Of a stretch of DNA of 64,000 bases, positions 11,141 through 61,011 are shown one piece after another (position 1 is the stretch's first letter; every line of letters starts with the position of its first letter). This DNA comes from Malacoraja senta. Lineage: Eukaryota. The DNA lies in contig JAXLNO010006061.1 of the NCBI GenBank assembly GCA_038087875.1, positions 62,001 through 126,000 of the forward strand. The letters are read 5' to 3'. A program made the translations under genes and the position numbers. Under the pieces are notes generated by a model. That model saw nothing but the letters and a program-made list of their open reading frames with translations. It had not been told where the DNA came from and made no database searches.

Positions 11141-14100
11141 GTTGGAACCCAAATCTGCAACGTTCCATCTGCAGCTGCAACGTTCCAGAGAAGGAGTGTG
11201 GGGGAAGCCTCTGATTGGTCGAACGGACGCAGACAGGAGACCCGGATGGTAGTTTGCCTCCCTGGTGCCAGGGTCAGGGATGTGTCTGAACGTGTCGAAG
11301 AAATCCTGAAATGGGAGGGAGAGAAGCCTGAGGTTGTGGTACATATAGGTACCAACGACATAGGTAAAAAAAGAGAAGAGGTCCTACATAGATACATAGA
11401 AAATAGGTGCAGGAGTAGGCCATTCGGCCCTTCGAGCCTGCACCGCCATTCAGTATGATCATGGCTGAAAGAAGAATTTAGGGAGTTAGGTAAAGAGTTA
11501 AGGAGAAGGACTGCAAAGGTAACAATCTCAGGATTACTGCCTGTGCCACGCGACAGTGAGAGTAGGAATGGAGCGAGGTGGGGGATAAATGAGTGGATGA
11601 GGGACTGGTGCAGTGGGTATGGATTCAAGGTTCTGGATCATTGGGACCTCTTTTGGGGAAGGTGCGACCTGTACAGAAAGGATGGGTTGCACTTGAACTC
11701 GAGGGGGACCAATATCCTGGCGGGTAGATTTGCAAAGGCTACTGGGGAGACTTTAAACTAGTATGGTTGGGGGGAGGGACTCAAATTGGGAAAGCTAGCA
11801 ATCAGTGTGTGAGGCAGGAGGCAGAGAATGGAAGCACTCTGACCCAAAATGTAGGGGAGAGAGAAGAAAAAGACAATAAACAGAGAATAAGAGAGGGTGG
11901 GTTTCTTAAATGTGTATATTTTAATGCTAGGAGCATTGTAAGAAAGGTGGATGAACTTAAAGCCTGGATTGACACCTGGAAGTATGATGTTGTGGCGATC
12001 AGTGAAACATGGTTGCAGGAGGGCTGTGATTGGAAACTAAATATTCCAGGATTTCGTTGCTGCAGGTGTGATAGAATTGGAGGGGCAAGAGGTGGAGGTG
12101 TTGCATTGCTTATCAGGGAAGATATTACAGCAGTGCTTTGGCAGGATAGATTAGAGGGCTCTTCTAAGGAGGCTATTTGGGTGGAACTGAGAAATGGGAA
12201 AGGGGTAGCAACACTCATAGGGGTGTATTATAGACCGCCAAATCGGGAGCGAGAATTGGAGGAGCAAATATGTAAGGAGATTGCAGATATTAGTAGTAAG
12301 CACAAGGTAGTGATTGTGGGAGATTTCAATTTTCCACACATAGACTGGGAAACACATTCTGTAAATGGGCTGGATGGGTTGGAGTTTGTAAAATGTGTGC
12401 AGGATAGTTTTTTGCAGCAATACATAGAAGTACCTACTAGAGAAGGGGCGGTGCTGGACCTCCTGTTAGGAAATGAGACGGGTCAGGTGGCAGAGGTATG
12501 CGTTGGGGAACAGTTCGGGACCAGTGATCACAATACCATTAGTTTCAATATAATTATGGAGAGGGTCAGAACTGGACCTAGGGTTGAGATTTTTGATTGG
12601 AGAAAGGCTAACTTTGAGGAGATGCGAAAGGATTTAAAAGGAGTAAATTGGGACAGTTTGTTTTATGGGAAAGATGTGGAAGAGAAATGGAGGACATTTA
12701 AAGGTGAAATTTTAAGAGTACAGAATCATTATGTCCCTGTTCGGTTGAAAGGAAATAGTAAAAATTGGAAAGAGCCATGGTTTTCAAGGGAAATTGGACA
12801 CTTAGTTCGGAAAAAGAGAGAGATCTACAATAATTATAGGCAGCATGGAGTAAATGAGGTGCTTGAGGAGTATAAAAAATGTAAAAAGTGTCTGAAGAAA
12901 GAAATTAGAAAAGCTAAAAGAAGATATGAGGTTGCTTTGGCAAGTAAGGTGAAAGTAAATCCAAAGGGTTTCTACAGCTATATTAATAGCAAAAGGATAA
13001 CGAGGGATAAAATTGGTCCATTAGAGAGTCAGAGTGGACAGCTATCTGCAGAGCCAAAAGAGATGGGGGAGATATTGAACAATTTCTTTTCTTTGGTATT
13101 CACCAAGGAGAAGGATATTGAATTATGTGAGGTAAGGGAAACAAGTAGAGTAGCTATGGAAACTATGAGATTCAAAGAAGAGGAAGTACTGACACTTTTG
13201 AGAAATATAAAAGTGGATAAGTCTCCAGGTTCGGACAGGATATTCCCTAGGACATTGAGGGAAGTTAGTGTAGAAATAGCAGGGGCTATGACAGAAATAT
13301 TTCAAATGTCATTGGAAACGGCAATAGTGCCGGAGGATTGGCGTACTGCGCATGTTATTCCATTGTTTAAAAAGGGGTCTAAGAGTAAACCTAGCAATTA
13401 TAGACCTGTTAGTTTGACGTCAGTGGTGGGCAAATTAATGGAAAGGATACTTAGAGATAATATATATAAGCATCTGGATAAACAGGGGCTGATTAGGAAC
13501 AGTCAACATGGATTTGTGCCTGGAAGGTCATGTTTGACTAATCTTCTTGAATTTTTTGAAGAGGTTACTCGGGAAATTGATGAGGGTAAAGCCGTGGATG
13601 TTTTATATATGGACTTCAGTAAGGCCTTTGACAAGGTTCCTCACGGAAGGTTGGTTAAGAAGGTTCAATGGTTGGGTATTAATGGTGGAGTAGCAAGATG
13701 GATTCAACAGTGGCTGAATGGGAGATGCCAGAGAGTAATGGTGGATGGTTGTTTGTCAGGTTGGAGGCCAGTGACTAGTGGGGTGCCACAGGGATCTGTG
13801 TTGGGTCCACTGTTGTTTGTCATGTACATCAATGATCTGGATGATGGTGTGGTAAATTGGATTAGTAAGTATGCAGATGATACTAAGATAGGTGGGGCTG
13901 TGGATAATGAAGTAGATTTTCAAAGTCTACAGAGAGATTTATGCCGGTTGGAAGAGTGGGCTGAAAGATGGCAGATGGAGTTTAATGCTGATAAGTGTGA
14001 GGTGCTACATCTTGGCAGGACAAATCAAAATAGGACGTACATGGTAAATGGTAGGGAATTGAAGAATGCAGGTGAACAGAGGGATCTTGGAATAACTGTG

Positions 14101-14781
14101 CACAGTTCCCTGAAAGTGGAATCTCATGTAGATAGGGTGGTAAAGAAAGCTTTTAGTGTGCTGGCTTTTATAAATCAGAGCATTGAGTATAGAAGTTGGG
14201 ATGTAATGTTAAAATTGTACAAGGCATTGGTGAGGCCAATTCTGGAGTATGGTGTACAATTTTGGTCGCCTAATTATAGGAAGGATGTCAACAAAATAGA
14301 GAGAGTACAGAGGAGATTTACTTGAATGTTGCCTGGGTTTCAGCAACTAAGTTACAGAGAAAGGTTGAACAAGTTAGGGCTTTATTCTTTGGAGCGCAGA
14401 AGGTTAAGGGGGGACTTGATAGAGGTCTTTAAAATGATGAGAGGGATAGACAGAGTTGACGTGGATAAGCTTTTCCCACTGAGAGTAGGGAAGATTCAAA
14501 CAAGGGGACATGACTTGAGAATTAAGGGACAGAAGTTTAGGGGTAACATGAGGGGGAACTTCTTTACTCAGAGAGTGGTGGCTGTGTGGAATGAGCTTCC
14601 AGTGAAGGTGGTGGAGGCAGGTTCGTTTTTATCATTTAAAAATAAATTGGATAGTTATATGGACGGGAAAGGAATGGAGGGTTATGGTCTGAGCGCAGGT
14701 ATATGGGACTAGGGGAGAATACGTGTTCGGCCCGTGTAGAAGGGTCGAGATGGCCTGTTTCCGTGCTGTAATTGTTATATA
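11141..14781 (+). mobile_element. CR1 LINE family B, near full length (partial ORF1 esterase, ORF2, 3' UTR)
   Basis: ORF1 remnant VHIGTND...DGLHLN (SGNH esterase) is interrupted by an inverted CR1-A tail at ~11388-11467. ORF2 and 3' UTR follow. Confidence 0.93.
11767..14712 (+). pseudogene. CR1 ORF2 (APE endonuclease + reverse transcriptase) with one in-frame stop
   Basis: An 852-aa and a 128-aa ORF lie in the same frame, separated by TGA at 14323-14325. Motifs: NARS, SETWL, GDFN, SDHN, QHGF, DFSKAFD, GVPQGSVLGP, YADD. Confidence 0.93.
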
Positions 14782-14799
14782 GTTCGAGCTTCAGTCAGA

Positions 14800-25260: not shown

Positions 25261-25930
25261 GTTTGGATAGGTTTGTAATGCTAGTTTCTGGGTTTCTAAT
25301 GTATATTAATACATCATCTGCATATAAAGACATTTTATTCACTGTGTCTTTGGTATTATACCCGTATATTTCTGGATGGGCTCTAACACTTTCTGCTAAT
25401 GGTTCAATAGCGAGAGCGAATAATAACGGAGATAGCGGGCATCCTTGTCTACAACCTCTAGATAAGTTAAATTTAGTTGATAACATTTGGTTTGTTAATT
25501 TTCTAGCTGTTGGGTTAGTATATAAGAGTGTGCAGTACTTCTCGCCCAGTTGAAAATTTTCCATCACCGAAAATAGATAGGGCCATTCCACCTGATCAAA
25601 TGCTTTTTCAGCATCTAACGAAATGATTACTAGGTCTACATTAGCAATTCTATTTGAATATATAATATTGAATAATCGTCTCAAATTATAAGATGAGTAT
25701 CGTTTTGGAATAAAACCTGTTTGGTCGGGGTGTACTAATTTATTAATCACTAAACTTAATCTATGTGCTAGAATTTTAGTTAATATTTTCTGATCAGTAT
25801 TTAAGAGAGCTATTGCTCTATATGAACCTATGCCTTCAAGGTCCTTATCTGTTTTTGGTATAAGTGTTATTGTAGATTCGTTTAAAGTTTCTGGCAGTTT
25901 CTGTTGAGTAAAAGCATACATATACAGTGT
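25261..25930 (-). mobile_element. Host L1 (L1-C) RT domain
   Basis: DQTGFIP, SLDAEKAFD, GCRQGCPLSPLLF, YADD; reads in frame into 21128 across the CR1 insertion. Confidence 0.9.
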
Positions 25931-25996
25931 CTGTAAGCTTATAATTCCATTCAAAATTAAAATTATAATATGGTATAAAGTAAAAAAGGTGAAAGA

Positions 25997-36600: not shown

Positions 36601-39600
36601 TAACATCTCCCGAGGACGCTCAGGATTTCATCTCATCTTACCATCGACGCAGACCGGGACCCACAGATGACTGACTTCGTTCAGTACGTCTATATTCGAG
36701 TGGCACATGGGCCCGGTTAATCTATGGTTACATGGACTAACTTTAGCTTGACTGTTCCTAATAACTAGCTATGGTTAGCGTGCAGCATTGCTGATTATAC
36801 TAGACCCCGGTTTCAAAATGTATGTGGCTGGTAAGAAATCACCAGGATTTGCGAATATTTTATACTAACTTTTTCTTATATTGTCGATGTGTAATCATAC
36901 TTGAGGGGTCCCTCACCAGCATATGCTATAAAACTGGGCTCAAAGGACCCACTTTGTGGTTTGGGATTTGGTCTCTGCCTTCCTGTTCTTCACAGCTGCC
37001 CGCTAACGCTGTCAGCACCTGGCTAGTTTGCTTATACTAATCTTCATAACGAACTGTCTGGGGCTGATAAGAGCTCATTACAGCCAGGGCGGTGTTATAT
37101 AAATCTTATCTTATACCTTTTTTGTTTAACAAAACATAATTGATGCCTTTAGCGCTGTGCTTTAATCCAACAGCCCAGTTTGTAATTTGCTAACCTTTCC
37201 AACGCCAACTCTCTCTTTATACTTTGTCGATTTTAAGACATACTATGTAACACCAAAGGAAGTTATTCCGGATCCACTTACACGTTAGCCGGTTTATTTA
37301 CTATCACCATTTTGTTAATATGCTTTGTCTTATTGTGACTATCATCATTGCTATTATTACTATTAGTGTTAGCAATGGTACTGGCAGTGCAACCATAATG
37401 GTTATTATTTTAACTTTGCATTTATCAATGTATGTTTATCTTACTTTATTCCTACTCTCTATTTATCAAATTATTATCATCATCGTCATTATTACTATTA
37501 CTATACTTATTTTACTTCATGTTATCTTATCGACACTGAGTGACCGTCGCTTTGGGAAGCGGTGATATAAGGAGTTAAGATTGGATATCTCCATGCGGAA
37601 GCGAGGACAACGCACCTTGGTGCAATGGGCACTTAAGGTTCAGTTGAGACATGGGGGATCTCAGGTCTGGAGTCTCAGGTTTGAAAGATGGTTAAATGAT
37701 ATGTGTTCCACTTGTTTGCTGTGTGTGNNNNNNNNNNNNNNNNNNNNNNNNNNNNNNNNNNNNNNNNNNNNNNNNNNNNNNNNNNNNNNNNNNNNNNNNN
37801 NNNNNNNNNNNNNNNNNNNNNNNNNNNNNNNNNNNNNNNNNNNNNNNNNNNNNNNNNNNNNNNNNNNNNNNNNNNNNNNNNNNNNNNNNNNNNNNNNNNN
37901 NNNNNNNNNNNNNNNNNNNNNNNNNNNNNNNNNNNNNNNNNNNNNNNNNNNNNNNNNNCAGCTGGCTTCGATGCGCTCTTCCGTCTCGTTTTGCAGAACT
38001 ACAGCGCATTACCCATATAGCTAAATATGGCCAACACAAACGATACTCTTAGATTTGTCTCGTGGAATGTGAGAGGGACGGGAAGTCCTACCAAAACTGA
38101 TAGGATCTTGGCCCATTTGCAACAGCTCAAAGGTGATATATTCTTCATCCAAGAGACCCACCTTCGCAACAGAGAGGTAACACGGCTTAAGAGAGGCTGG
38201 ATTAGTCAACTATTTCACTCGAAATGTAATAATAGGGCTATCCTGATTCATAAGAACATTAAGTTCGAACCACAGAAAACTGTGGAAGACCCTGCTGGTC
38301 GCTTTGTCATGGTGTCGGGCAAATTGCAAGACACACCTGTCATATTGGCAAGCATTTATGGACCCAACTGGGATGACAGCTCATTTATAACTAAATTTTT
38401 TACATCTCTCCCAAATATTGAAAATCACCATGTCATTGTGGGTGGAGACTTTAATCTGGTCCAAGATCCTATACTGGATAGATCTTCGAATAAAGCCTCT
38501 ACTTTAACTAAATCCGGTAAGACTGTGCATGTTCTTGCCAAACAACTGGGGCTTACAGATCCATGGAGATTTATATTCCCCACGACTAAATTATTTTCAT
38601 TTTTCTCCCACGCACATCGTACGTTTACCCGTATAGACTTCTTTCTCTTAGATAATAGATTGCTTTCCAAAATCAAATCTAGTGAGTACCATAGCATCGT
38701 TATATCAGATCATGCTGCGACCTCCCTTGATCTTCATTTTCGTAAACGAACTAACCCCTTTAAGTGGAGGTTCAACTCCTCATTATTAGCAGAGGCTCAA
38801 TACATGCAATTCTTGCACTCCCAAATCACCCTATATTTTGAGCTGAATGACTTGCCGGACATAGAAAGAGGTATACTTTGGGAAGCTTCAAAAGCCTATA
38901 TTAGGGGCCAACTCATTTCCTTTATCTCCAACCTGAAAAGAACCGAGACGTTCCAAACGGCAGATCTGTTACAAAAAATAAAGGACATTGATGACAAATA
39001 TGCATCTGACCCAAACCCTAATCTCTATAGAGAACGCCTTAGGCTACAAACAGACTTTGACCTCATATCCATTAATAAAGCCAATCTACGACTGCTTAAA
39101 TCTAGGCAACACTTTTTTGAATCTGGGGATAAAGCTGGAAAGCTTTTGGCCCATCAGGACAGAACAGAGGCGACTTCACGGCTAATTCCAGCCATTAGAT
39201 CCAGCTCAGGGGAGACTCATACTGATCCTCGCAGAATTAATGAAACATTTGCTAAATTCTACACTGAACTATACACTTCCGACTGTCCGCCCACTGCAGG
39301 TGACATGTTCAGCAGTATGACGCTTCCCCGAATTGACGAAGAAGCCATGAGAGACTTGGGTGGTCCCATAACTGTAGCTGAGGTCCAAGCAGCCATCACA
39401 TCGTTGCAAAGCGGAAAGTCACCCGGCCCTGACGGCTTCTCTGTAGAATATTACAAAGCTTTCTCTGACCTCCTCGCACCAGTCCTGAGAGATATGTACA
39501 ATGAGGCGTTTTTACATCGTCGCCTACCGCCCACCTTGTCGTGGGCTACCATCTCCCTAATTCTTAAAAAGGAGAAAGATCCCCTGCTTTGTAGTAGCTA

Positions 39601-40616
39601 TAGACTAATCTCACTACTGAATGTGGACCTCAAAATCCTTTCTAAAGCCCTTGCGCTTCATCTTCAACGAGTGATGCCCTCTATTATCTCGTTGGATCAA
39701 ACAGGGTTTGTACCTGGCCGACAGTCTTCCCATAATACTAGGCGTCTCCTTAACATCATTCACTCTTCGAGTAATGAGACCCCGGAGATGGTGGTCTCCC
39801 TCGATGCCGAAAAGGCCTTCGACAGGGTCGAGTGGAGGTACCTATATGATAGGTTTGGCCTCGGAAACAGTTTTATTCTCTGGGTGAGCCTATTATATTC
39901 GTCCCCGGTGGCCTCAGTACAAACAAACGACATACTGTCGCCCCACTTCACACTTCAGAGAGGTACCAGACAGGTACCACTATCTCCACTCTTGTTTAAT
40001 GTCGCGATAGAACCCCTGGCGGTCTGGTTACGCGCAGAGAAGGGCTTTAAAGGTATTACACGGTTTGACACAACTCATAAAGTCTCATTGTATGCGGATG
40101 ACCTGCTCGAACCCAGTCAGTTCTCTCCCTGTGATTATGAATATTTTAGAACGGTTTGGTGCATATTCTGGTTATAAACTTAACTACCAAAAGAGTGAGC
40201 TATTACCGATTAACTTACCGGCTAAGCAGCTCCCTCGCTCTTTAACCTCATTCAAAAGGGCAGAGGATGGGTTTTGCTATCTCGCCGTTTTTATCACAAT
40301 ACCCTTATCTGATATGTTCCGCACAAACTTTTTGCCTCTGGTTGAGAAAGCCGAAAAAGATTTTGATCGCTGGTCAGTCTTACCGCTATCCCTCGTGGGC
40401 CGGATAAATCTGGTTAAGATGGTTGTCCTACCCAAATTCCTGTATCTTTTCCAGCATGTCCCCATACTTATCACCAAATCTTTTTTTGACAACTTAGAAA
40501 GGACAATATCTAAATTCTTATGGGGTAGCAAACCGGTCAGAATCCGAAAGGCGATACTGCAGTCGCCTAAGAGTGATGGCGGTTTGGCCCTCCCTGATTT
40601 TAGGCAATACTACTGG
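30671..40616. repeat. Tandem segmental duplication 1, unit 2
   Basis: About 99.9% identical to 20735-30670 (about 8 differences seen). Contains copies of the PLE tail (30671-30841), CR1 (31065-35196), L1-C RT and L1-A. Confidence 0.95.
37728..37958. other. N run (231 nt), paralogous to 27786-28014
   Basis: Seen directly. Confidence 0.99.
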
Positions 40617-44707: not shown

Positions 44708-45302
44708 ATAAATGGTTAATAAAGTGTAAAAGAAGAGAAAAAACTACATCTCTAGTTGGTGTAGTTAGTGATAGCCACACTAATGTGGCTAGCCATCTAA
44801 AGACTTCCGTAGCCTTTGGAAAAAAAATAATAATACCAGCTCCATGCTTTTCTTTAAAAAAAGTTTCAATAATAACAATTTGTAGGGAAGGGGGAAGACA
44901 TTTTTAGGTCCAAAATATTTATAATCTGTTAGTGAAAAAGTCATTATTCTCAAGATAAAATATTAGTCTCATATTAAAAAAATATGAATCGATAATTGGT
45001 CAAGAGTATAAATTTAAAAAAAAACATTATTAATAAATTGCCTGAATCAAACCTTACTTATAATTCATATTTTGAACTAATTCTAAGTGGCTCCAATTAA
45101 TAATAATTAGTAATAATTAGTAATCATAATTAGTAGTAATTAGTACTAAAATATAAATGTTATATATCAATAGCAATAAAAAAAACTTGCTCGACTATCA
45201 TTTTCAGCTTTCATTAGTCCTTAAGTAAAACAATTTAAAGTTCCATTTGTTCTCTGTGAGGTAACGATGTCCGTCCGGTAACATCAGGTGGGTGTTGAGT
45301 AT
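44708..45302 (-). mobile_element. Host L1-C inter-ORF spacer
   Basis: Linked to the L1-C ORF2 side by the L1-A TSD and to ORF1 by the ERV TSD. Confidence 0.6.
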
Positions 45303-45844
45303 TGTGAGGAAGGGGTTAATAGGTATAAGTTGATTTAGACAAGAACCCTTTGTATAGTAGGGAGTATAGTAGGGAGGATAGGGGGAGTGAAGAACGAGTA
45401 CAGATGGTGACTTTTTCAAGGATGAGAACAGAGAAGATAAGGAGACCGTCCAGGATAGAACTAGGGTAAGGGTCATAAGAAACACTCTGTGCGCATGGTC
45501 AATGAACTTACATGAATATGTACACACACCCACTATGACAAGATGTCTCATTTAAATGCACATGCGATGCATGATATGGGAGGTGTCTTTGACGTCGGGT
45601 GGACGTTCCAGGACGTTCTCGTGGGAATGTGGGCTTTATGTTATGATTGGAAGAAGCACAATGGGGAGGGATGAGGGTGTGACAATGATACCCATGAAAT
45701 GTATAAAGATAGAAGACATCCCGATCCTCGGTGTGCCTCTAGGGGGCATCAGAGGAGAGGCACCTATTCTGCAGAATATTATTTGAATAAAAAGCTTCTT
45801 TGCCGACTTTGTCTCTAAAAGCGTTTGTGATTTTGAATCTCACA
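45303..45844 (+). promoter_or_regulatory. ERV 5' LTR (542 bp)
   Basis: TG...CA ends with a 6-bp inverted repeat; AATAAA at ~45786; about 6 substitutions and 2 indels versus the 3' LTR. Confidence 0.92.
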
Positions 45845-45849
45845 ATTTT

Positions 45850-45868
45850 TGGGGGCTCGTCTCGGGAC
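45850..45868 (+). promoter_or_regulatory. Primer-binding site, tRNA-Pro type
   Basis: TGGGGGCTCGTC-T-CGGGA versus canonical PBS-Pro TGGGGGCTCGTCCGGGAT, 5 nt after the LTR. Confidence 0.88.
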
Positions 45869-48361
45869 CCCCACTCCGGCTGACGACGGTATACGGAAGA
45901 AGGGACGGTGCACCCCGTTGATTTCAGCGGTCCCAGACCCCTAGATTGTCGTCAGCGGTTTGGGCGAGTGGTATCCCTGAACAGAGACTCAGCAAAGAAG
46001 TGGGAGTAGTTGGAAATCGTGAAGGAGCCAAATCGAGTGATTCTTGTGCACAAGACCCGGGTAAGAAAACTGACTATTAAGTACTACTCGGGCGATTAAA
46101 TAGATCGGGGGCAAATAGATCGGGGGGAAATTCCGATCGGGAGGAAGATCGGGGGGAAATTCCGATCGGGAGGATGGGCAATGAAAACGGAGAGCCCAAA
46201 AGGGAGGGGAAGGGCAGTAAGCCCGACCCCGCATTCTGCCTGATAGTCCGTTGGGGCGAATGCTGAGCCTCTGGGGGCAGAGAAATACCCAGGGATTGAA
46301 GAAGACAAAAATGATTTGATTCTGTTATATTGAGTTTTAATACATGTAAAAGATGTTGCATTTATTTGAAGTAAGAATGGAACGAATGTGATTTGTGTGT
46401 AAAAACCGGTTGGGAATGAAAGAGGAAGTTTATATATGTGATAATTATTTTGTTTATTGTATTTGTAGACCACATTGTAAGAGTAAGTAAGTAAGTTTTA
46501 TTAAAATCAAAAATGTTCACTGTAGGTAGGTGCATGTTCCTTTAAATAAATCAGGTCATGGTGAAAGGCGACGAACAGCTGTAAGATAACGATTAATTGT
46601 TTGTTGGCCTTAACCTAGAAGGGGAAGTTGTGAAACCAGCTTTTGGTTTTTCTGATGTTCTTTTAGATTTCTAGTCAGTAAAGATAATTTGGAAAATTGT
46701 TACTAGTGCTAGGAATTGGACATTTAAAATAGTGGTGAATATGGATTGAAATAATTGGAAATAAGTTAATTGGTAAACATTCAAGTTTAGAAAGAAAGGA
46801 GAGAGAGGCAGTTAGAAGATAACAGAAGTAGAAAAACAACAGGCGTGAAAGTAATAAAGCAGGAGGAGTCAGTGGAAGATTTTTGCAAGGAGGCTAGAAT
46901 ATTTGAGAAGCAAGAAATTGAGTTTAGAATTAGAAAGAAGGCATACCAGAAAGGATTAAAGTTGGAAGCATTGGGATAAAGTGATGAGACTGCTTTAAAG
47001 AGAAAAGAGAAGGACAGACACGGATTATCCCTTGGGGCACCCATAAACTGAAAGGGCTAAAAAATACCTCACCCTATATCCCTGATGGGGGAGGAAATGG
47101 ATTAGGGCTTTGGAGGAGGAGAACATGGGACGATTATTGATCATGGAAGATTTGAAGGCACTGTTGGTAAAAGTGATAGGAACCACTAAAGTGACAGAAC
47201 TACTGAAGATGGATGGTATAAACTGATGCGAACAATGTAACAAGCAATGGCATACTGTTTGACACAGTCAGGCAGAGGGTATGGCAGACCCTCAGACAAT
47301 GTTACCCACTTAAGAGGAACCCCAAGGAACAAAGGGGAGATACACAAGAAGGAAAGGCAAATAGCCTATCTGGAAAACCAGCTGAAAAGGTGGAGAGTTG
47401 ATTGATGAACATTATATTATGAACTACTATGATGGATGTCATTCTTCTTAAAGTCAAGCAGATTCAGCGAACAGTTGGTCTCTGCGGTCGAGAAATATCG
47501 CAAAGATAGGAAAAAGACTTGCAAACCAGCAGGAGGAGGAGTTGTCAATAAACAATGGACCTAAGTGAGTCCTATGACGGAACCAAGCAGGGCCAGAGAA
47601 TTACATGCCAATAATGAATGTCTTTGGGGTACGTTTCCTCAAAAGGTCCTATCAGGAGTGAAATTAATCTGGATATAAGCCCTAACAGGACTGGGGTCCC
47701 CAAGAGAGAAAGGGATTTAAAGGCAGGATATAGTTCAGACTAGATTTGGTATAAGCCCTGTAGTGTCATTTATGATGAATAAGGTAATTAAGAGGTTTGG
47801 TAGACCTACAGAAATCAGCTTTGACAACGGATTGTTTTCATTTAGGGAGTAGCTAAGTTGGCGATAGAGACCCTTAGAGTAAAATACACATTTGGGTATG
47901 TAAGAATAAATGGAACATTGAAGGTTAATATAAATAAGATTTGTTTAATTACAAAGTTGAATTGGATCGATGCCCTGCCATTGGCACTGAAGAGATGTTG
48001 CATGCAAACTAACCGAGCAGGTGGCACAATGGAGAGGTCCCTACAAGAGACCGAGTTTGGAACAGTTAAAGATAGAATTTAAAAAGTATATGAAACAGTT
48101 AATTATGATATACAAGTCTATTTATGAACAGGAAAAGTAAAAGCTGTTGGAGGTGGACCAGGAGGAAGGACCCTTTAAACCTGAAGACAAGGTGTATGTA
48201 TGAGTTTTCTAAACTACCGACCGATGTTGATATACCTGGTACCATTTCAATAATACCCGAGGGCTGTCCCGCAGGTACGAATAGATAATAGCCCTGAGGT
48301 AAGTGAACAGGAGGACAAAGATGTGAGAAAAGAGTAGAGTTTGAACAAGAACGTTGTTTGA

Positions 48362-49310
48362 CATCAGTGGTGGGCAAAATAATGGAAAGGATACTTAAGA
48401 CGACATATAAGAATTTGGATAAATAGGGTAGGATTAGGAAGAATTAGCATGGATTTGTGATTGTGATGTTTGACTAATCTTGAATTTTTTGAAAAGGTTA
48501 TTAGGGAAATTGATGAGGGTAAAGTGATGGATGTTGTCTAGATGAACTTCAGTAAGGCCTTTGACAAGGTTCAATAAGGAAATAAGGTTGGTTAAAAAGG
48601 GTTAGTAAGGAATAGCAAGATGGATTAAAAAGTGGCTGTATGGGAGATGTCAGAGAGCAATGGTGGATGGATGTTTGTCAGGTTGGAGGTCAGTGACTAG
48701 AAGGGTACCTCGGGGATGTTTGTTGGGTCCACTGTTGTTTGTCATGTGAATCAATAATCTGGATGTTGGTGTGGTAAAATAGATTAATAAGTATGTAGAT
48801 GATACTAAGATAGGTGGTGTTGTGAATAATGAAGTAGATTTTAGAAGTGTACAGAGAGATTTAGATCATTTGGAAGAATGGGTTGAAACATGACAGATAG
48901 GTTTAATGTTGATAAGTGTGAGATGATACATCTTGGCAGGACAAATCAAAATTGAATGTACATGGTAAATGATTGTGAATTGAGGAATGAAGTTGAATAG
49001 AGGGATCTAGGAATAACTGTACATAGTTCCCTGAAGGTGGAATTTCATGAAGATAGGATGGTAAAGAAAGATTTTGGTGTGTTGGCCTTTATAAATCAGA
49101 GCATTGTGTATAGAAGTTGGGTTGTAATGTTAAATTGTACAAGGTATTGGTGAGGTAAATTGTGGAGTATGGTGTATAATTTTGGTAGGCATAATTATAG
49201 GAAGGATGTCAACAAAATAGAGAGAGTACAGAGGAGATCAATTAGAATGTTGACTGGGTTTCAGCAACTAAGACACAGAGAAAGGTTGAACAAGTTAGGT
49301 CTTTATTACT
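48362..49310 (+). mobile_element. CR1-B RT fragment embedded in the ERV, heavily mutated
   Basis: Aligns colinearly with ~13420-14395; lacks the CR1 3' tail; many stops. Confidence 0.9.
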
Positions 49311-49702
49311 TAGGAAAGATAGAAGGGGTCCCAACAAATACAAGGGGATGATGTATTCCTAAGGAACTATTTACTGGCAGTATCTCGTTCTATTACAGAA
49401 TTAAGAACCAAGGGGCTGCTGGCACAGAGTCCCCATCTCGACTTTCCAATCCATTCTGTGAAAGCGGGGGACTGGGATCTTGTAACATCATGGAAGGAAG
49501 AAAAGCTGCAACCTAAGTGGACTGGACCCTACCTGGTGTTACTAATCACCGAGACAGCAGTACGAACAAAAGAAAAAGGGTGGACACATGCAAGCCGATT
49601 TAAGGGACCTGTGGAGGCCCCACCAAACAATATCAGCCCGTGGACTGTGCGCAAAGGAGAGGAACCATTGACTTTAATATTTAACAAGAACCCGCGGGAA
49701 AA

Positions 49703-50687
49703 ATGAAGATTTCGTGTTGGTGGGTCGTGTGTTGGGTGGTTACCCAACTATGTAAGCATACAGAGTGTTCAAATGCAGGAAAGTGGTAGGTATTGGATAT
49801 GTGCAGATAGAACAGGGAGAATGAGCCTAAGGATTTGAAGATAATGATAGTAGCAGGAGAAACAGAATTAAGGCAATTATATGAGGAGGGAATACCTACA
49901 GGAGGGAAGGGAGCCAACACCTGGCTTGCCTGGATGATGTACACGGCCAGGAGTATGCAACACACCAATTGCTACGCCTGTGCCGGAGCTAAGCCTCAGC
50001 TGGTTCCAGAACCATTTCCCTTGAATTGGGATAGGACACCTGGGGCTATGTCATGTATACTACAGCTATTCACGAATCCCATCCTACCAAAGGATGCGAC
50101 CTGCCAGAGTTATCATTACCTATTCCCGGCTAGCAACAACAATACAAAGGGCCGAAGGACAGACACTTCAACACACACATATATATATAGATGCGATAGG
50201 GGTGCCAAGAGGGGTACCCGATGAATTCAAAGCCAGAAACCAGATAGCTGCGGGCTTTGAGTCCATACTCTTCTGGTGGTCCACACTTAATAAAAATGTG
50301 GACTGGATCAACTACCTATACTACAATCAACAACGCTTTATAAATTACACTCGAGATGCGGTTGAAGGATTAGCGGAACAACTGACAGATACCAGCCTAA
50401 TGGCCTGGCAAAATCGCATGGCCTTAGACATGCTACTGGCTGAGAAGGGAGGGGTGTGTGTAATGTTTGGGGAACAATGTTGCACCTTCATCCCCAACAA
50501 CACTGCTCCTGATGGGTCAGTATCGAGAGCCCTAGCAGGTCTCACCTCCCTGTCTATCGAATTGCCCGAGAACTCCGGAGTAGACACCTCCTGGACCGCT
50601 AGACTCCTGGTTTGGGAAATGGAAGCACATCTTTACATCAGCCCTAACATCAGTGGTAGTTATGATGGGGTTGCTGTGCCTATTTAA
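49703..50687 (+). pseudogene. env: Retroviral env, frameshifted and internally deleted
   Basis: SU CYAC motif; TM GVPRGVPDEFKARNQIAAGFES..WINY.YYNQQRF; immunosuppressive domain WQNRMALDMLLAEKGGVC; CX6CC (CVMFGEQCC). Confidence 0.9.
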
Positions 50688-50802
50688 AACAAAGTATGAC
50701 CAGCGAGAGGAAGATAAGGAGGCGAAGATTCTGCTGCTAGCATTAGAGAAGGGGCAGATAGTCTAAATCAAAGATTGCAGTAGCAAAAGTAAAAGTGTGG
50801 AT

Positions 50803-51330
50803 TGTGAGGAAGGGGTTAATAGGTATGTTGATTTAGACAAGAACCCTTTGTATAGTAGGGAGGATAGGGGGAGTGAAGAACGAGCACAGATGGTCACTTT
50901 TTCAAGGATGAGAACAGAGAAGATAAGGAGACCGTCCAGGATAGAACTAGGGTAAGGGTCATAAGAAACACTCTGTGCGCATGGGCAATGAACTTACATG
51001 AATATGTACACACACCCACTATGACAAGATGTCTCATTTAAATGCACATGCGATGCATGATATGGGAGGTGTCTTTGACGTCGGGTGGACGTTCCAGGAC
51101 GTTCTCGTGGGAATGTGGGCTTTATGTTATGATTGGAAGAAGCACAATGGGGAGGGATGAGGGTGTGACAATGATACCCATGAAATGTATAAAGATAGAA
51201 GACATCCCGATCCTCGGTGTGCCTCTAGGGGACATCAGAGGAGAGGCACCTATTCTGCAGAATATGATTTGAATAAAAAGCTTCTTTGCCGACTTTGTCT
51301 CTAAAAGCGTTTGTGATTTTGAATCTCACA
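50803..51330 (+). promoter_or_regulatory. ERV 3' LTR (528 bp)
   Basis: Matches the 5' LTR and is followed by the TSD. Confidence 0.92.
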
Positions 51331-51335
51331 AGTAT

Positions 51336-52593
51336 TGTTCAATCATCGGTCTTATTCTCAATGTCCAGGGCGAAATCAAGTGCTTCCTTGTGGTCAGTGA
51401 AGAAATATTCCTTCCTCTTGTAGGTAACTCCGTGTTGCGGGATACATCAGTCCATAATCTCAGATCTTGTATATTCTTAAGTATTCTTCTTGTCTCTTGG
51501 TTCCTGGTTCCTTGGTTCTTGTCTCTTGGTTCCTTGTCTCTCACTTCCTGGTGACCTCCACAGGATAATCTCTAAATATACTGATCTTGTCTCCTTCAAA
51601 TAGGAGATCTCTGTTGCGAACGATTTTCTTCATCATATTATCCAAAACATGGCCATATGTCACCTTCACGATCAGTTGTCTTGGGGGGGCGTCCGCCCTT
51701 GGGCGGCGTCCCAGTGCTCTGTGTGCCCGACTTAGTAAGGGTTTTTGATCAAGATTTAAGACTTTTTGTAATAAGTCTGCAGAAAATTCACGGAGGTCAT
51801 GGCTCCCCTCTCTGCCTTCCTGGACGCCCACAATTCTTAAATGTTGTCGTCTCTGACGTCCCTCCAAGTCAATACATTTTTCAGTTATTTTACTCAATGA
51901 GTCTGATAAACGCTTGTTCTCGGAGAGAAGCTTTTTTGTAGTTTCGGCACCTGTCTCAGCAATATCCTCTAATTGAGTTATAGCTGTATTTTGTTGATTT
52001 AATGTCTGGATGATGGTATCCAACTTAGAATTAAAGCTGGATTCCATCGAATTTATTTTAACATTTACCTCTTCGATCTGTAGAGTAAGATTTTCTTCCA
52101 TTGTTATCTTCCAGGCTTCCAACACTTCATGAACAGAGTTTGTAATTTCTTCTTTCATTTATTCTTTAAAGGATTGCAGTTCTTCTTTAAAGTTCAGTTT
52201 TTCTTTAAAACTTTTCAATTGTTCCTTTATACTTGCAATTTCTTGTGAGAGAAAACTTCGAAGTTCCTCTATTTCTGTTTTTTTCGACTTTTGTCTTCTT
52301 TGAAACATCTTTCTGGGACGACGCTAAAACTGAGCCCGAGGCTTCAGTCGGGCCTAGTCCGACTGAGACTTCAGTCCTTGGGCTTCACGGTTGGGCTTTT
52401 CGTCTTGGGGGTGGGGTGGTATGTTAGACAGACATACCGCCGGAGTCGCTCGCCTGATGACGTCACTCACTCGTTGCAAGCAGCCAGAGTGTTATCAGCG
52501 GGTCAGTCCCGTTCTTTTCTCCCCGTTTTCAAACAATTTTGCGTGGAGCTAGCTGGCGCGGACCTCTATTCCTCCATAGCGCCACCGGAAGTC
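51336..52593 (-). mobile_element. Host L1-C 5' UTR and ORF1 (decayed)
   Basis: 5' end AGACTTCCGGTGGCGC; coiled coil followed by LEGRQRRQ.LRIVGVQEG...RAHR, an L1 ORF1 signature. Confidence 0.88.
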
Positions 52594-53856
52594 TATACTC
52601 TAAAGGCAGCCTCACCAACATCTTATATAACTGCAACATGACCTCCCAACTATACTCAATACTCTGACTGATGCAGGCCACTTCCTGCTGTCAAACATTA
52701 AAACTTAGCAATATTACAGTTCTGTACAAGCATCCATGTGCTCTTCCACAATGCCCGAGCTCAGTATGACTTGCAGCACGCCAGTAAAATTATGTCAGGA
52801 GCAACTTAATCCTCTAAAAGCTCAACATAACCAAAAACAAGCAGAGGCTTCAAACTGAAAAATACAAGCTTCATCTTGTCATCTTAAAAAAATGATAAAT
52901 CCAGTTAGTTAATGCAATATTCTATTATTCAAGAGAATAATAAAATGCAACTTTGTGAAAGAGCAGTTTTTGAAATAAGAATATAAGCCAATATTTAAAG
53001 CTTTTGTTCCCCACAGACAATATTATTGCAGGAAATATAAACAAACATGAAAGCTTACAGCTTACATTTAAACTATTAGACAAAATACAGATTTAGTCAT
53101 GCTATTTTGTGCAATATTCAGCAAAGCACCTAATGCTGGATGTCTGTCATTGCTTATGATAATAATGGGTATAATTTGAGTTGATTAAGGAATATTAAAG
53201 TATATTTGGTTTGAATGCATTCAAAAATAACTAGTATTAATTTGCAGAACAAATCCAATGATACCGGTAAAATAGATATAAAAAGCTATAAACACGCCTT
53301 CCACTATAACAAACTATGAAGGATGCTGACGATACAAAGACCTTCTGTTAGAGGGCATTTTGTACTTTACCCATAGTCTATATCTGACTTTACTCAGATA
53401 GGCACAGACACAAATTGAAAAAACTCATAGATCAGTGGCGAGTCTATCTAACATGTCAGTTTAATAAAGGCCTCAGCAAAATACATCGGGAAGCAGTGTG
53501 AGCAAACTCAAACTACTTCAAAATCCTACAATAACTGTAGGATTCTTATACCCTCATGACACAATGGTTACTTGTGGAGTTGAAATAAACAATCATTAAT
53601 CAACGTCTCCCCAAAGTTGACTTAAATCTTGCCTTTCTTGTTGTTTGGAATTCTCCCACCCACTTATCTCACCTGTGGATGCCATAAATGGCCAGATTCC
53701 CCCACCAAATGGAATCCCCTTGTAAAAGTGGCAATTTGTTAACCTTTGCGAGACCTGGCTGCTAAACATAATGACCAAGAGCAGCTGTAATGCAAGATTG
53801 CAACAGATAAGAACCCAGACACAACTGTGAAGGACTATCCTTCCCTCCGACTGATA

Positions 53857-54598
53857 AGAAACATAGAAACATAGACATAGAAACATAGACATAGAAAATA
53901 GGTGCAGGAGGAGGCCATTCGGCCCTTCGAGCCAGCACCACCATTCATTGTGATCATGGTTGATCGTCCCCCATCAATAACCCGTGCCTGCCTTCTCCCC
54001 ATATCCCTTGACTCCACTAGCCCCTAGAGCTCTATCTAACTCTCTCTTAAATCCATCCAATGATTTGGCCTCCACTGCTCTCTGTGGCAGGGAATTCCAT
54101 AAATTCACAACTCTCTGGGTGAAAACATTTTTTTCTCACCTCAGTCTTAAATGACCTCCGCTTTATTCTAAGACTGTGGCCCCTGGTTCTGGACTCGCCC
54201 AACATTGGGAACATTTTTCCTGCATCTAGCTTGTCCAGTCCTTTTATAATTTTATGTTTCTATAAGATCCCCCTCATCCTTCTAAAGTCCAGTGAATACA
54301 AGCCTAGTCTTTTCAATCTTTCCTCATATGATAGTCCCGCCATCCCAGGGATCAATCTCGTGAACCTACGCTGCACTGCCTCAATCACAAGGATGCCCTT
54401 CCTCAAATTAGGAGACCAAAACTGTACACAATACTCCAGATGTGGTCTCACCAGAGCCCTATATAACTGCAGAAGAACCTTTTTACTCCTGTACTGAAAT
54501 CCTCTTGTTATGAAGGCCAACATTCCATTAGCTTTCTTCACTGCCTGCTGTACCTGCACGCCAACTTTCAGTGTACAAGGACACCCAGGTCTCGCTGT
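53857..54598 (-). mobile_element. CR1 3' portion with (TTTCTATGT)n-like tail
   Basis: [24 protein letters not shown] motif; tail at 53857-53897. Confidence 0.9.
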
Positions 54599-57500
54599 AG
54601 GTGGACCAGGTGGAAGGACCCTTTAAACCTGAAGACAAGGTGTATGTATGAGTTTTCTAAACTACCGACCGATGTTGATATACCTGGTACCATTTCAATA
54701 ATACCCGAGGGCTGTCCCGCAGGTACGAATAGATAATAGCCCTGAGGTAAGTGAACAGGAGGACAAAGATGTGAGAAAAGAGTAGAGTTTGAACAAGAAC
54801 GTTGTTTGACATCAGTGGTGGGCAAAATAATGGAAAGGATACTTAAGACGACATATAAGAATTTGGATAAATAGGGTAGGATTAGGAAGAATTAGCATGG
54901 ATTTGTGATTGTGATGTTTGACTAATCTTGAATTTTTTGAAAAGGTTATTAGGGAAATTGATGAGGGTAAAGTGATGGATGTTGTCTAGATGAACTTCAG
55001 TAAGGCCTTTGACAAGGTTCAATAAGGAAATAAGGTTGGTTAAGAAGGGTTAGTAAGGAATAGCAAGATGGATTAAAAAGTGGCTGTATGGGAGATGTCA
55101 GAGAGCAATGGTGGATGGATGTTTGTCAGGTTGGAGGTCAGTGACTAGAAGGGTACCTCGGGGATGTTTGTTGGGTCCACTGTTGTTTGTCATGTGAATC
55201 AATAATCTGGATGTTGGTGTGGTAAAATAGATTAATAAGTATGTAGATGATACTAAGATAGGTGGTGTTGTGAATAATGAAGTAGATTTTAGAAGTGTAC
55301 AGAGAGATTTAGATCATTTGGAAGAATGGGTTGAAACATGACAGATAGGTTTAATGTTGATAAGTGTGAGATGATACATCTTGGCAGGACAAATCAAAAT
55401 TGAATGTACATGGTAAATGATTGTGAATTGAGGAATGAAGTTGAATAGAGGGATCTAGGAATAACTGTACATAGTTCCCTGAAGGTGGAATTTCATGAAG
55501 ATAGGATGGTAAAGAAAGATTTTGGTGTGTTGGCCTTTATAAATCAGAGCATTGTGTATAGAAGTTGGGTTGTAATGTTAAATTGTACAAGGTATTGGTG
55601 AGGTAAATTGTGGAGTATGGTGTATAATTTTGGTAGGCATAATTATAGGAAGGATGTCAACAAAATAGAGAGAGTACAGAGGAGATCAATTAGAATGTTG
55701 ACTGGGTTTCAGCAACTAAGACACAGAGAAAGGTTGAACAAGTTAGGTCTTTATTACTTAGGAAAGATAGAAGGGGTCCCAACAAATACAAGGGGATGAT
55801 GTATTCCTAAGGAACTATTTACTGGCAGTATCTCGTTCTATTACAGAATTAAGAACCAAGGGGCTGCTGGCACAGAGTCCCCATCTCGACTTTCCAATCC
55901 ATTCTGTGAAAGCAGGGGACTGGGATCTTGTAACATCATGGAAGGAAGAAAAGCTGCAACCTAAGTGGACTGGACCCTACCTGGTGTTACTAATCACCGA
56001 GACAGCAGTACGAACAAAAGAAAAAGGGTGGACACATGCAAGCCGATTTAAGGGACCTGTGGAGGCCCCACCAAACAATATCAGCCCGTGGACTGTGCGC
56101 AAAGGAGAGGAACCATTGACTTTAATATTTAACAAGAACCCGCGGGAAAAATGAAGATTTCGTGTTGGTGGGTCGTGTGTTGGGTGGTTACCCAACTATG
56201 TAAGCATACAGAGTGTTCAAATGCAGGAAAGTGGTAGGTATTGGATATGTGCAGATAGAACAGGGAGAATGAGCCTAAGGATTTGAAGATAATGATAGTA
56301 GCAGGAGAAACAGAATTAAGGCAATTATATGAGGAGGGAATACCTACAGGAGGGAAGGGAGCCAACACCTGGCTTGCCTGGATGATGTACACGGCCAGGA
56401 GTATGCAACACACCAATTGCTACGCCTGTGCCGGAGCTAAGCCTCAGCTGGTTCCAGAACCATTTCCCTTGAATTGGGATAGGACACCTGGGGCTATGTC
56501 ATGTATACTACAGCTATTCACGAATCCCATCCTACCAAAGGATGCGACCTGCCAGAGTTATCATTACCTATTCCCGGCTAGCAACAACAATACAAAGGGC
56601 CGAAGGACAGACACTTCAACACACACATATATATATAGATGCGATAGGGGTGCCAAGAGGGGTACCCGATGAATTCAAAGCCAGAAACCAGATAGCTGCG
56701 GGCTTTGAGTCCATACTCTTCTGGTGGTCCACACTTAATAAAAATGTGGACTGGATCAACTACCTATACTACAATCAACAACGCTTTATAAATTACACTC
56801 GAGATGCGGTTGAAGGATTAGCGGAACAACTGACAGATACCAGCCTAATGGCCTGGCAAAATCGCATGGCCTTAGACATGCTACTGGCTGAGAAGGGAGG
56901 GGTGTGTGTAATGTTTGGGGAACAATGTTGCACCTTCATCCCCAACAACACTGCTCCTGATGGGTCAGTATCGAGAGCCCTAGCAGGTCTCACCTCCCTG
57001 TCTATCGAATTGCCCGAGAACTCCGGAGTAGACACCTCCTGGACCGCTAGACTCCTGGTTTGGGAAATGGAAGCACATCTTTACATCAGCCCTAACATCA
57101 GTGGTAGTTATGATGGGGTTGCTGTGCCTATTTAAAACAAAGTATGACCAGCGAGAGGAAGATAAGGAGGCGAAGATTCTGCTGCTAGCATTAGAGAAGG
57201 GGCAGATAGTCTAAATCAAAGATTGCAGTAGCAAAAGTAAAAGTGTGGATTGTGAGGAAGGGGTTAATAGGTATGTTGATTTAGACAAGAACCCTTTGTA
57301 TAGTAGGGAGGATAGGGGGAGTGAAGAACGAGCACAGATGGTCACTTTTTCAAGGATGAGAACAGAGAAGATAAGGAGACCGTCCAGGATAGAACTAGGG
57401 TAAGGGTCATAAGAAACACTCTGTGCGCATGGGCAATGAACTTACATGAATATGTACACACACCCACTATGACAAGATGTCTCATTTAAATGCACATGCG

Positions 57501-60500
57501 ATGCATGATATGGGAGGTGTCTTTGACGTCGGGTGGACGTTCCAGGACGTTCTCGTGGGAATGTGGGCTTTATGTTATGATTGGAAGAAGCACAATGGGG
57601 AGGGATGAGGGTGTGACAATGATACCCATGAAATGTATAAAGATAGAAGACATCCCGATCCTCGGTGTGCCTCTAGGGGACATCAGAGGAGAGGCACCTA
57701 TTCTGCAGAATATGATTTGAATAAAAAGCTTCTTTGCCGACTTTGTCTCTAAAAGCGTTTGTGATTTTGAATCTCACAAGTATTGTTCAATCATCGGTCT
57801 TATTCTCAATGTCCAGGGCGAAATCAAGTGCTTCCTTGTGGTCAGTGAAGAAATATTCCTTCCTCTTGTAGGTAACTCAGTGTTGCGGGATACATCAGTC
57901 CATAATCTCAGATCTTGTATATTCTTAAGTATTCTTCTTGTCTCTGTAAACAGCGCTCTCTTCCTGGTGACCTCCACAGGATAATCTCTAAATATACTGA
58001 TCTTGTCTCCTTCAAATAGGAGATCTCTGTTGCGAACGATTTTCTTCATCATATTATCCAAAACATGGCCATATTGCACCTTGACTATCAGTTGTCTTGG
58101 GGGGGCGTCCGCCCTTGGGCGGCGTCCCAGTGCTCTGTGTGCCCGACTTAGTAGGGGTTTTTGATCAAGATTTAAGACTTTTTGTAATAAGTCTGCAGAA
58201 AATTCACGGAGGTCACGGCTCCCCTCTCTGCCTTCCTGGACGCCCACAATTCTTAAATTTTGTCGTCTCTGACGTCCCTCCAAGTCAATACATTTTTCAG
58301 TTATTTTACTCAATGAGTCTGATAAACGCTTGTTCTCGGAGAGAAGCTTTTTTGTAGTTTCGGCACCTGTCTCAGCAATATCCTCTAATTGAGTTATAGC
58401 TGTATTTTGTTGATTTAATGTCTGGATGATGGTATCCAACTTAGAATTAAAGCTGGATTCCATCGAATTTATTTTAACATTTACCTCTTCGATCTGTAGA
58501 GTAAGATTTTCTTCCATTGTTATCTTCCAGGCTTCCAACACTTCATGAACAGAGTTTGTAATTTCTTCTTTCATTTATTCTTTAAAGGATTGCAGTTCTT
58601 CTTTAAAGTTCAGTTTTTCTTTAAAACTTTTCAATTGTTCCTTTATACTTGCAATTTCTTGTGAGAGAAAACTTCGAAGTTCCTCTATTTCTGTTTTTTT
58701 CGACTTTTGTCTTCTTTGAAACATCTTCCTGGGACGACGCTAAAACTGAGCCCGAGGCTTCAGTCGGGCCTAGTTCGACTGAGACTTCAGTCCTTGGGCT
58801 TCACGGTTGGGCTTTTCGTCTTGGGGGTGGGGGGGTATGTTAGACATACCGCCGGAGTCGCTCGCCTGATGACGTCACTCACTCGTTGCAAGCAGCCAGA
58901 GTGTTATCAGCGGGTCAGTCCCGTTCTTTTCTCCCCGTTTTCAAACAATTTTGCGTGGAGCTAGCTGGCGCGGACCTCTATTCCTCCATAGCACCACCGG
59001 AAGTCTATACTCTAAAGGCAGCCTCACCAATATCTTATATAACTGCAACATGACCTCCCAACTATACTCAATACTCTGACTGAGGCAGGCCACTTCCTGC
59101 TGTCAAACATTAAAACTTAGCAATATTACAGTTCTGTACAAGCATCCATGTGCTCTTCCACAATGCCCGAGCTCAGTATGACTTGCAGCACGCCAGTAAA
59201 ATTATGTCAGGAACAACTTAATCCTCTAAAAGCTCAACATAACCAAAAACAAGCAGAGGCTTCAAACTGAAAAATACAAGCTTCATCTTGTCATCTTAAA
59301 AAAATGATAAATCCAGTTAGTTAGTGCAATATTCTATTATTCAAGAGAATAATAAAATGCAACTTTGTGAAAGAGCAGTTTTTGAAATAAGAATATAAGC
59401 CAATATTTAAAGCTTTTGTTCCCCACAGACAATATTATTGCAGGAAATATAAACAAACATGAAAGCTTACAGCTTACATTTAAACTATTAGACAAAATAC
59501 AGATTTAGTCATGCTATTTTGTGCAATATTCAGCAAAGCACCTAATGCTGGATGTCTGTCATTGCTTATGATAATAATGGGTATAATTTGAGTTGATTAA
59601 GGAATATTAAAGTATATTTGGTTTGAATGCATTAAAAAATAACTAGTATTAATTTGCAGAACAAATCCAATGATACCGGTAAAATAGATATAAAAAGCTA
59701 TAAACACGCCTCCCACTATAACAAACTATGAAGGATGCTGAGGATACAAAGACCTTCTGTTAGAGGGCATTTTGTACTTTACCCATAGTCTATATCTGAC
59801 TTTACTCAGATAGGCACAGACACAAATTGAAAAAACTCATAGATCAGTGGCGAGTCTATCTAACATGTCAGTTTAATAAAGGCCTCAGCAAAATACATCG
59901 GGAAGCAGTGTGAGCAAACTCAAACTACTTCAAAATCCTACAATAACTGTAGGATTCTTATACCCTCATGACACAATGGTTACTTGTGGAGTTGAAATAA
60001 ACAATCATTAATCAACGTCTCCCCAAAGTTGACTTAAATCTTGCCTTTCTTGTTGTTTGGAATTCTCCCACCCACTTATCTCACCTGTGGATGCCATAAA
60101 TGGCCAGATTCGCCCACCAAATGGAATCCCCTTGTAGAAGTGGCAATTTGTTAACCTATGCGAGACCTGGCTGCTAAACATAATGACCAAGAGCAGCTGT
60201 AATGCAAGATTGCAACAGATAAGAACCCAGACACAACTGTGAAGGACTATCCTTCCCTCCGACTGATAAGAAACATAGAAACGTAGACATAGAAACATAG
60301 ACATAGAAAATAGGTGCAGGAGGAGGCCATTCGGCCCTTCGAGCCAGCACCACCATTCATTGTGATCATGGTTGATCGTCCCCCATCAATAACCCGTGCC
60401 TGCCTTCTCCCCATATCCCTTGACTCCACTAGCCCCTAGAGCTCTATCTAACTCTCTCTTAAATCCATCCAATGATTTGGCCTCCACTGCTCTCTGTGGC

Positions 60501-61011
60501 AGGGAATTCCATAAATTCACAACTCTCTGGGTGAAAACGTTTTTTTCTCACCTCAGTCTTAAATGACCTCCGCTTTATTCTAAGACTGTGGCCCCTGGTT
60601 CTGGACTCGCCCAACATTGGGAACATTTTTCCTGCATCTAGCTTGTCCAGTCCTTTTATAATTTTATGTTTCTATAAGATCCCCCTCATCCTTCTAAAGT
60701 CCAGTGAATACAAGCCTAGTCTTTTCAATCTTTCCTCATATGATAGTCCCGCCATCCCAGGGATCAATCTCGTGAACCTACGCTGCACTGCCTCAATCAC
60801 AAGGATGTCCTTCCTCAAATTAGGAGACCAAAACTGTACACAATACTCCAGATGTGGTCTCACCAGAGCCCTATACAACTGCAGAAGAACCTTTTTACTC
60901 CTGTACTGAAATCCTCTTGTTATGAAGGCCAACATTCCATTAGCTTTCTTCACTGCCTGCTGTACCTGCACGCCAACTTTCAGTGTACAAGGACACCCAG
61001 GTCTCGCTGTA
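54599..61011. repeat. Tandem segmental duplication 2, unit 2 (3' ERV half with env and LTR 57251-57778, L1-C ORF1, CR1)
   Basis: About 99.5% identical to unit 1, apart from a 47-for-15-bp replacement and a 4-bp indel. Confidence 0.95.

Follow-up and report, generated by a model that had tools for sequence, protein, structure and literature searches.

A mosaic endogenous retrovirus of Malacoraja senta with a CR1 insertion and directional loss of cytosine from the sense strand

The 64,000-nt stretch of Malacoraja senta DNA analysed here (the window) contains a whole, defective provirus at positions 45303–51330. Its parts are listed in Table 1, together with a second, partial copy and a free young CR1 element used as reference. 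The element is a Class I endogenous retrovirus by its MLV-type gag, integrase C-terminus and TLV_coat env. Translation of the core in three frames gave no Pfam family, and no tRNA genes were found in the window. The joints of the core with its ends show apparent microhomology, of about 8 nt at the 5' joint with clade A (defined below) and of 2–3 nt at the 3' joint, as read from single natural copies.

Table 1. Layout of the provirus and related elements (positions of the 64,000-nt window)
Feature	Position	Strand	Basis or remark
5-bp target-site duplication	left 45298..45302, right 51331-51335	+ (left)	sequence
5' LTR, clade-A type	45303..45844	+	
Primer-binding site, leader and first gag codons, all clade A	45845..46335	+	0 fixed differences/414 sites vs sampled clade-A proviruses
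Clade-B gag, decayed and partly deleted, inherited from family P	46336..47728	+	
Clade-B integrase, decayed; protease/RT/RNase H deleted before it	47758..48350	+	C loss ~2x G rate
CR1 reverse-transcriptase fragment, 960 bp	48356..49315	+	matches free CR1 13412-14393
Clade-A integrase C-terminal piece (Pfam MLVIN_C) and env start	49307..49749	+	
Clade-A env with internal deletion (Pfam TLV_coat)	49749..50685	+	~97% identity to sampled clade-A proviruses
3' LTR	50803..51330	+	
Second, partial copy	54596..57778	+	its CR1 piece 54804-55763
Free young CR1, reference copy	11728..14784	+	ORF2 11728-14325 (endonuclease and RT)

An initial annotation had described a CR1 reverse-transcriptase fragment within a retrovirus at 46300–49310. 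Such a fragment is present, but the CR1 piece itself is confined to the interval given in Table 1, and the stretch taken for a C-poor leader and gag (46300–48360) consists, over 46336–48350, of decayed gag and integrase remnants from a different retroviral clade, in which C is unevenly distributed (7.8%, 17.4% and 13.4% by thirds). The same annotation had held the 3' parts not to be C-poor; this applies to the integrase end and env, with 21% C, but not to the LTRs, which have 15% C and 28% G. Since the two LTRs are only 5 substitutions and two indels apart, the divergence of the CR1 piece is older than the integration in the window, as had been argued.

The surroundings are repetitive. A 6.4-kb tandem duplication (48148–54595 and 54596–61011, 98.8–99.9% identity) begins within the provirus and duplicates its 3' half and flank, so the second copy is not a separate insertion. 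A further tandem duplication of 9.9 kb, at about 20700–40500, includes on its minus strand a CR1 from a different subfamily and on its plus strand an endonuclease-type ORF of 718 aa, in which about 30% of fourfold sites are C. Three unplaced contigs (C6061, C3758 and C2078) repeat both the provirus and the free CR1 at 99–100% identity, with a spacing of about 57–69 kb, which places the window in a large segmental or tandem repeat.

The ends and the core of the provirus have different sources. Clade A comprises 19 of 20 fetched Gag_p30-positive loci, which share with the provirus the LTR, the leader (to 46335), the integrase end (from 49307) or env, while none of the 20 aligned to 46336–48350 by blastn. 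A word-based search with the short integrase remnant found no homologue, and the source of the core was not among 50 Pfam rve integrase loci tried as candidates. A HMMER search with the core integrase remnant gave 23 protein matches of a type other than clade A, one of which, used as a query, led to a second retroviral clade in the genome, clade B. Its members align to the gag and integrase of the core at 67–86%, protease and RT being deleted in the core. Pfam domains Gag_p30, MLVIN_C and TLV_coat were found in clade A, and rve and MLVIN_C in clade-B relatives; the labels gamma-like and epsilon-like for the clades are our assumption.

The leader and env carry 0–2 fixed differences from clade A. 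The integrase end is 13% apart from the sampled clade-A copies, but the differences lie mainly in third positions and match the outgroup, and it thus comes from another clade-A sublineage; with only 5 derived changes at 213 polarised sites, it joined the element late. The matches of core and ends bear out the proposal of a recombinant between a long-passaged non-autonomous core and fresher, env-bearing ends. A single type of core is furthermore found with LTR types only 67–80% alike and with differing env deletions (L082, L088, L097, L294, L297 and L300), which suggests that ends were exchanged with clade-A sublineages more than once. Within the integrase end, a 127-codon frame (49323–49706) is open in most of the 150 matches listed, which may reflect youth or overlap with env signals.

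The junction motif between clade-B sequence and CR1 occurs 435 times in the genome (control motif, 0), and this identical joint at so many places supports the earlier suggestion that the CR1 piece travelled in viral RNA. The copies fall into two families. Family P, with clade-B LTRs, was found in 9 of 20 fetched junction loci, which had been picked for retaining a CR1-like base, and amounts to at least 40 loci; family X is the one with the layout of the window provirus. LTR pairs were 92.5–99% alike in P (10 of 20 fetched loci) and 93–100% alike, with a median of about 99%, in X (37 of 51 loci). Four sites counted by hand in the first 100 of 298 exact junction matches gave 28 copies of P type, 72 of X type and none mixed, so that no P–X intermediate occurred among these first 100 listed. 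Of 199 diagnostic states, 0–4% were present in 26 P copies and 93–100% in 51 X copies. A tree built from 60 natural CR1 segments groups P with the free older CR1 in a single shallow cluster, whose tips measure about 0.01–0.03, and all 18 X rows fall in one clade on a stem of 0.10. Family X is thus the core of P, shortened and about 10% diverged, set between a clade-A LTR and leader and a clade-A integrase end, env and LTR. Other members of the family carry the CR1 segment as well, and its loss of cytosine is family-wide, with 34–41 per ~100 C lost in full-length X pieces.

Three observations on the distribution of these sequences may be added. Five tandem X copies with a spacing of about 5.9 kb lie at C7:26193279-26218185. 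X-type pieces of 95–99% identity were also found in contigs from sequencing runs of other organisms. An RNA run of another organism yielded mostly free-CR1 reads, with zero depth in the bin before the 5' junction.

The origin of the CR1 piece was traced with a sample of 30 young and 30 older free copies, whose subfamilies are told apart by 33 sites, including 22 third positions. The piece agrees with the older subfamily at 18 of 31 discriminating sites, and the young free CR1 is a sister of the donor subfamily and not the donor. In P, the CR1 is 1.37 kb long and 5'-truncated, matches free CR1 13412–14784, has an intact 3' tail and is flanked by an about 4-nt duplication, and the insertion is missing from this site in a clade-B relative (L260). 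This combination identifies an ordinary genomic LINE insertion into a provirus, of which the piece in the window is the 5' part. The CR1 therefore entered the provirus as a LINE insertion and was carried in viral RNA only later, and its capture as such by the virus is not supported.

The parent family also bears on where the C poverty arose. If the donor had been an older, C-poor CR1 subfamily, or if the piece had decayed asymmetrically in a transcribed host region, viral passage would have had no effect. About 20 of the 115 differences from the young CR1 are indeed common to older copies, and CR1 itself is poor in C at fourfold sites (see below). However, the same insertion in P copies has lost only 4–9 of ~103 C, and in the tree P clusters closely with the free sister CR1, with X alone on its long stem. 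An older C-poor donor, which the initial annotation had named as a possible refutation, is refuted by these two results. Decay in the host likewise disagrees with the symmetry of private mutations, and with the G–C skew of 12 host stretches around GTPase genes, presumed introns, 11 of which range from -0.09 to 0.17 (one outlier, -0.53), compared with about 0.6 in the piece. We regard this explanation, in either form, as almost certainly wrong.

The directional loss itself was readily reproduced. Between 48611–49200 and 13690–14280, 72 of 589 sites differ (12.2%), with 28 C losses (15 C>T, 9 C>A and 4 C>G), 3 gains and 17 G>A, in good agreement with the ~25–30 losses, ~3 gains, ~14 G>A and 10–15% divergence estimated by eye in the initial annotation. 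At sites where the two free subfamilies agree, the piece has lost C at 39/100, G at 26/274, A at 12/280 and T at 16/264 (Fisher p=5e-10), and the symmetric spectrum that would have spoken against the observation did not appear. The losses are spread over codon positions (18/46, 17/34 and 4/20), which argues that they were not inherited from a coding LINE. Private changes of free CR1 copies are symmetric (C 30/110, G 65/288, p=0.36).

The changes were then assigned to branches, using natural copies only and taking as ancestral the state common to an outgroup copy and one P copy; three P copies of the cluster of L286 and one X duplicate were left out before counting, and the sampled copies, which came from similarity searches, are non-random. 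On the X stem, C was lost at 71/330, G at 51/700, A at 35/825 and T at 33/638 sites (C/G ratio 2.95, p=2e-10). Both components contributed, with 31/94 C against 15/260 G in the CR1 part (about 6 times the rate of G; p=4e-10) and 40/236 C against 36/440 G in the viral part, and two further P copies used as reference (three in all) gave the same picture. After the stem the asymmetry is absent: X singletons had lost C at 80/330 and G at 165/700 sites (ratio 1.03), and variants found in at least four X copies gave 1.06. In P, the C/G ratio was 4.0 for fixed changes, 3.5 on internal branches (in the CR1 part, C 17/124 and G 7/382) and 1.24 for singletons (p=0.006). For internal branches the odds ratio was 3.32 in P versus 0.95 in X (p=0.005), the X class being small (12 C and 27 G events) and possibly diluted by recurrent genomic mutation.

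Shared variants of clade-A pol gave ratios of 0.7–0.8, without C excess, and those of 15 sampled coding clade-B copies were too few for any bias to show. Over 460 shared integrase columns, C declines stepwise from 18–20% to 15–17% and 13%, with G steady at 22–25%. At fourfold sites, clade-B relatives have 11–20% C versus 23–30% G, and the coding ones among them 15–20% C. Low fourfold-site C (7–12%, with G 20–32%) was also seen in the CR1 ORF2 (11728–14325; 7%) and in some ORFs at L162, L163 and L179, which we take to be Gypsy-like. Other retroelements in the genome have 22–43% C at such sites, and with this spread between elements a host process acting on all retroelements is not supported; synonymous changes within CR1 itself were few. 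An integrase-bearing locus, L167, has pyrimidine-rich fourfold sites (C 37–43%, T 35–43%), a skew opposite to the C loss.

The spectrum on the X stem comprises 34 C>T, 28 C>A and 9 C>G, set against 43 G>A, 5 G>T and 3 G>C; relative to the bases available, C>T (34/330) is more frequent than G>A (43/700). C>T is the largest class of C loss (34/71), as would be expected of an AID/APOBEC-type deaminase acting on the plus strand or RNA, with uracil excision and bypass yielding the transversions. Two of four candidate loci in the genome match the APOBEC_N family, a lower bound as split exons can escape the search, and loss is slightly more frequent at WRC (29/113 versus 42/231). This last difference is however not significant (p=0.12), nor is that at TC (p=0.34), CC is depleted and GpC is the enriched context. 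Transversions, in which much of the asymmetry lies, make up more than half of the losses, which are moreover unclustered (runs test 41 versus 44.8 expected, p=0.23) and accumulate gradually along P branches. The known editing of retroelements, as far as covered by the sections consulted, is seen as sense-strand G>A, more than 10-fold over C>T (PMC4866542). Deaminase editing, the first of the causes that the initial annotation had offered, accordingly appears improbable.

The strongest asymmetry is that of C>A and C>G, and it could be explained if guanines in exposed minus-strand cDNA were chemically damaged (as G>T, G>C and G>A on that strand), most of all near the 3' end, where the strand is single-stranded longest. 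In line with this, C loss becomes more frequent from 5' to 3' through the core (p=0.006 for position, and p=0.06 within the viral part), position and CR1 identity being confounded as predictors. Deamination of C on the same strand would, though, predict a gradient of G>A, and the stem has 29/440 in the viral part and 14/260 in the CR1 part. The P internal branches show no monotonic gradient either (9/76, 3/167, 8/112, 7/101, 17/124 and 5/46 along the core), and the end of the loss after the change of helper would be left unexplained. Such damage we consider at least as improbable as editing. Dislocation slippage, in which a C copies its neighbour, left no signal in the context tables.

A more serious alternative, although still an unlikely one, is selection on the packaged RNA, in which fewer C would mean looser structure and easier reverse transcription or packaging by clade B. 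In G-rich RNA, C limits the number of G–C pairs, so any exit from C loosens structure, and all three exits are elevated; newly acquired CR1 sequence should moreover be purged fastest. The CR1 part did lose more C than the viral part, both on the X stem (p=0.003, with the confounding by position noted above) and on P internal branches (17/124 versus 32/502). Lost C were more often paired (unpaired 0.175 versus 0.266, p=0.054), and mean folding energy weakened from -42 to -33 kcal/mol per 200 nt. A similar proposal has been made for the A-rich, C-poor HIV genome, in the portion of the article consulted (PMC3511177). On the other hand, the pairing effect falls to p=0.10 with context and region as covariates, weaker folding is expected from any loss of C, and the effects of single bases are tiny and would need large populations. 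There is also a clear preference for the 5' neighbour (46/150 lost after G or T, 25/194 after A or C; p=8e-5), which looks enzymatic.

The explanation we put first, and which may well be correct, is that sense-strand C was lost through a reverse-transcription bias linked to clade B, acting on an unconstrained passenger RNA. In this scheme, the CR1 inserted into a clade-B provirus that spread as family P, and P and early X would have been copied in trans by clade-B enzymes, the LTR type suggesting which virus mobilised them. Co-packaging and mobilisation in trans by a helper is suggested by the absent protease and RT and the shared ends. With nothing to encode, all positions would be free to follow the bias: during minus-strand synthesis the enzyme would place A, T or C instead of G opposite a template C, owing to its intrinsic fidelity or to low dGTP. 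Pools of dNTPs do bias retroviral mutation, according to the part of a report that was consulted (PMC3185545), which also gives an HIV-like rate of 3.4e-5 per base per round. At that rate, the stem of 0.10 would correspond to roughly 3,000 rounds, that is, of the order of thousands; the clade-A integrase piece shows a change of no more than about 2%, so that most of these rounds would have preceded the 3' recombination, under clade-B machinery. Template switching would then have placed clade-A ends on the core, whereupon the bias would have ended and X spread to hundreds of loci.

Several results sit uneasily with the copying bias. The stem spectrum implies a C equilibrium of 4%, and fourfold-site C of coding clade-B relatives lies well above this value; the excess loss in the CR1 part counts against a uniform enzyme bias; the more frequent pairing of lost C leans towards selection; and a slight asymmetry persists in P singletons. 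A bolder, rather doubtful version has the core as a satellite RNA of a circulating clade-B fish retrovirus, outside the germline, which was stripped of C over thousands of rounds in a manner unlike APOBEC before it swapped its ends with an unrelated retrovirus and re-entered the germline of several species. It is prompted by the bare stem of 10%, the lack of intermediates among the first 100 listed junctions and the absence of bias after the switch.

The mosaic structure belongs to a known kind; the interest lies in the helper-linked loss of C with its built-in controls. A single neutral marker whose origin is known has travelled with two retroviral clades in succession, and the same genome contains its donor LINE, its parent family, hundreds of its copies and the two helper clades, so that the mutation spectrum under each helper is measurable from sequence alone. 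The strand-skewed composition of mobile elements is called unexplained, as to mutation or selection, by a 2022 review in the section consulted (PMC9099904), and the present case provides a natural experiment on its cause. In the literature searched, which excluded most subscription journals, Repbase/Dfam and supplements, no report was found of polarised sense-strand C loss in a non-autonomous endogenous retrovirus, or of its end at a helper switch.

The comparisons that follow refer to the consulted portions of the reports cited. The closest likeness is to recKoRV, with KoRV ends and a PhER core (Löber et al. 2018, PMC6112702), in which the LTR and leader and the env end and LTR of one retrovirus flank an older non-coding core, with microhomology at a breakpoint, new loci with target-site duplications and several LTR types on one core. 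The arrangement of ends and core is the same here, the ends matching all but one of the 20 Gag_p30-positive loci and the core none by blastn but clade B and P instead, and the element has likewise spread by retroviral integration, with paired LTRs, a 5-bp duplication and many loci. In contrast to recKoRV, the core here derives from a second class-I clade plus a LINE insertion, its parent is present and its stem is long and bare; strand-specific C loss is not described for recKoRV in those portions. Mosaic HERVs such as Harlequin (Vargiu et al. 2016, PMC4724089) also multiplied after recombination, and piggy-back insertions in proviruses are known among them, whereas the piggy-back piece here is a LINE fragment, fixed throughout two families, that acts as a neutral and dated record of the mutation spectrum. 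The A-rich, C-poor lentiviruses (van der Kuyl and Berkhout 2012, PMC3511177) share the poverty in sense-strand C and the question of mutation versus selection on RNA structure; here, the loss is polarised on branches, has C>A and C>T in similar numbers, hardly affects G and ends after the change of helper ends. Finally, APOBEC-edited LTR elements (Knisbacher and Levanon 2016, PMC4866542) resemble the present case in having a strand-specific, cytosine-related change fixed in retroviral replication, but the change here is sense-strand C loss and not G>A, rich in transversions, unclustered and without a deaminase motif. It is a mirror of the APOBEC mark, of the kind that screens take as their negative control.
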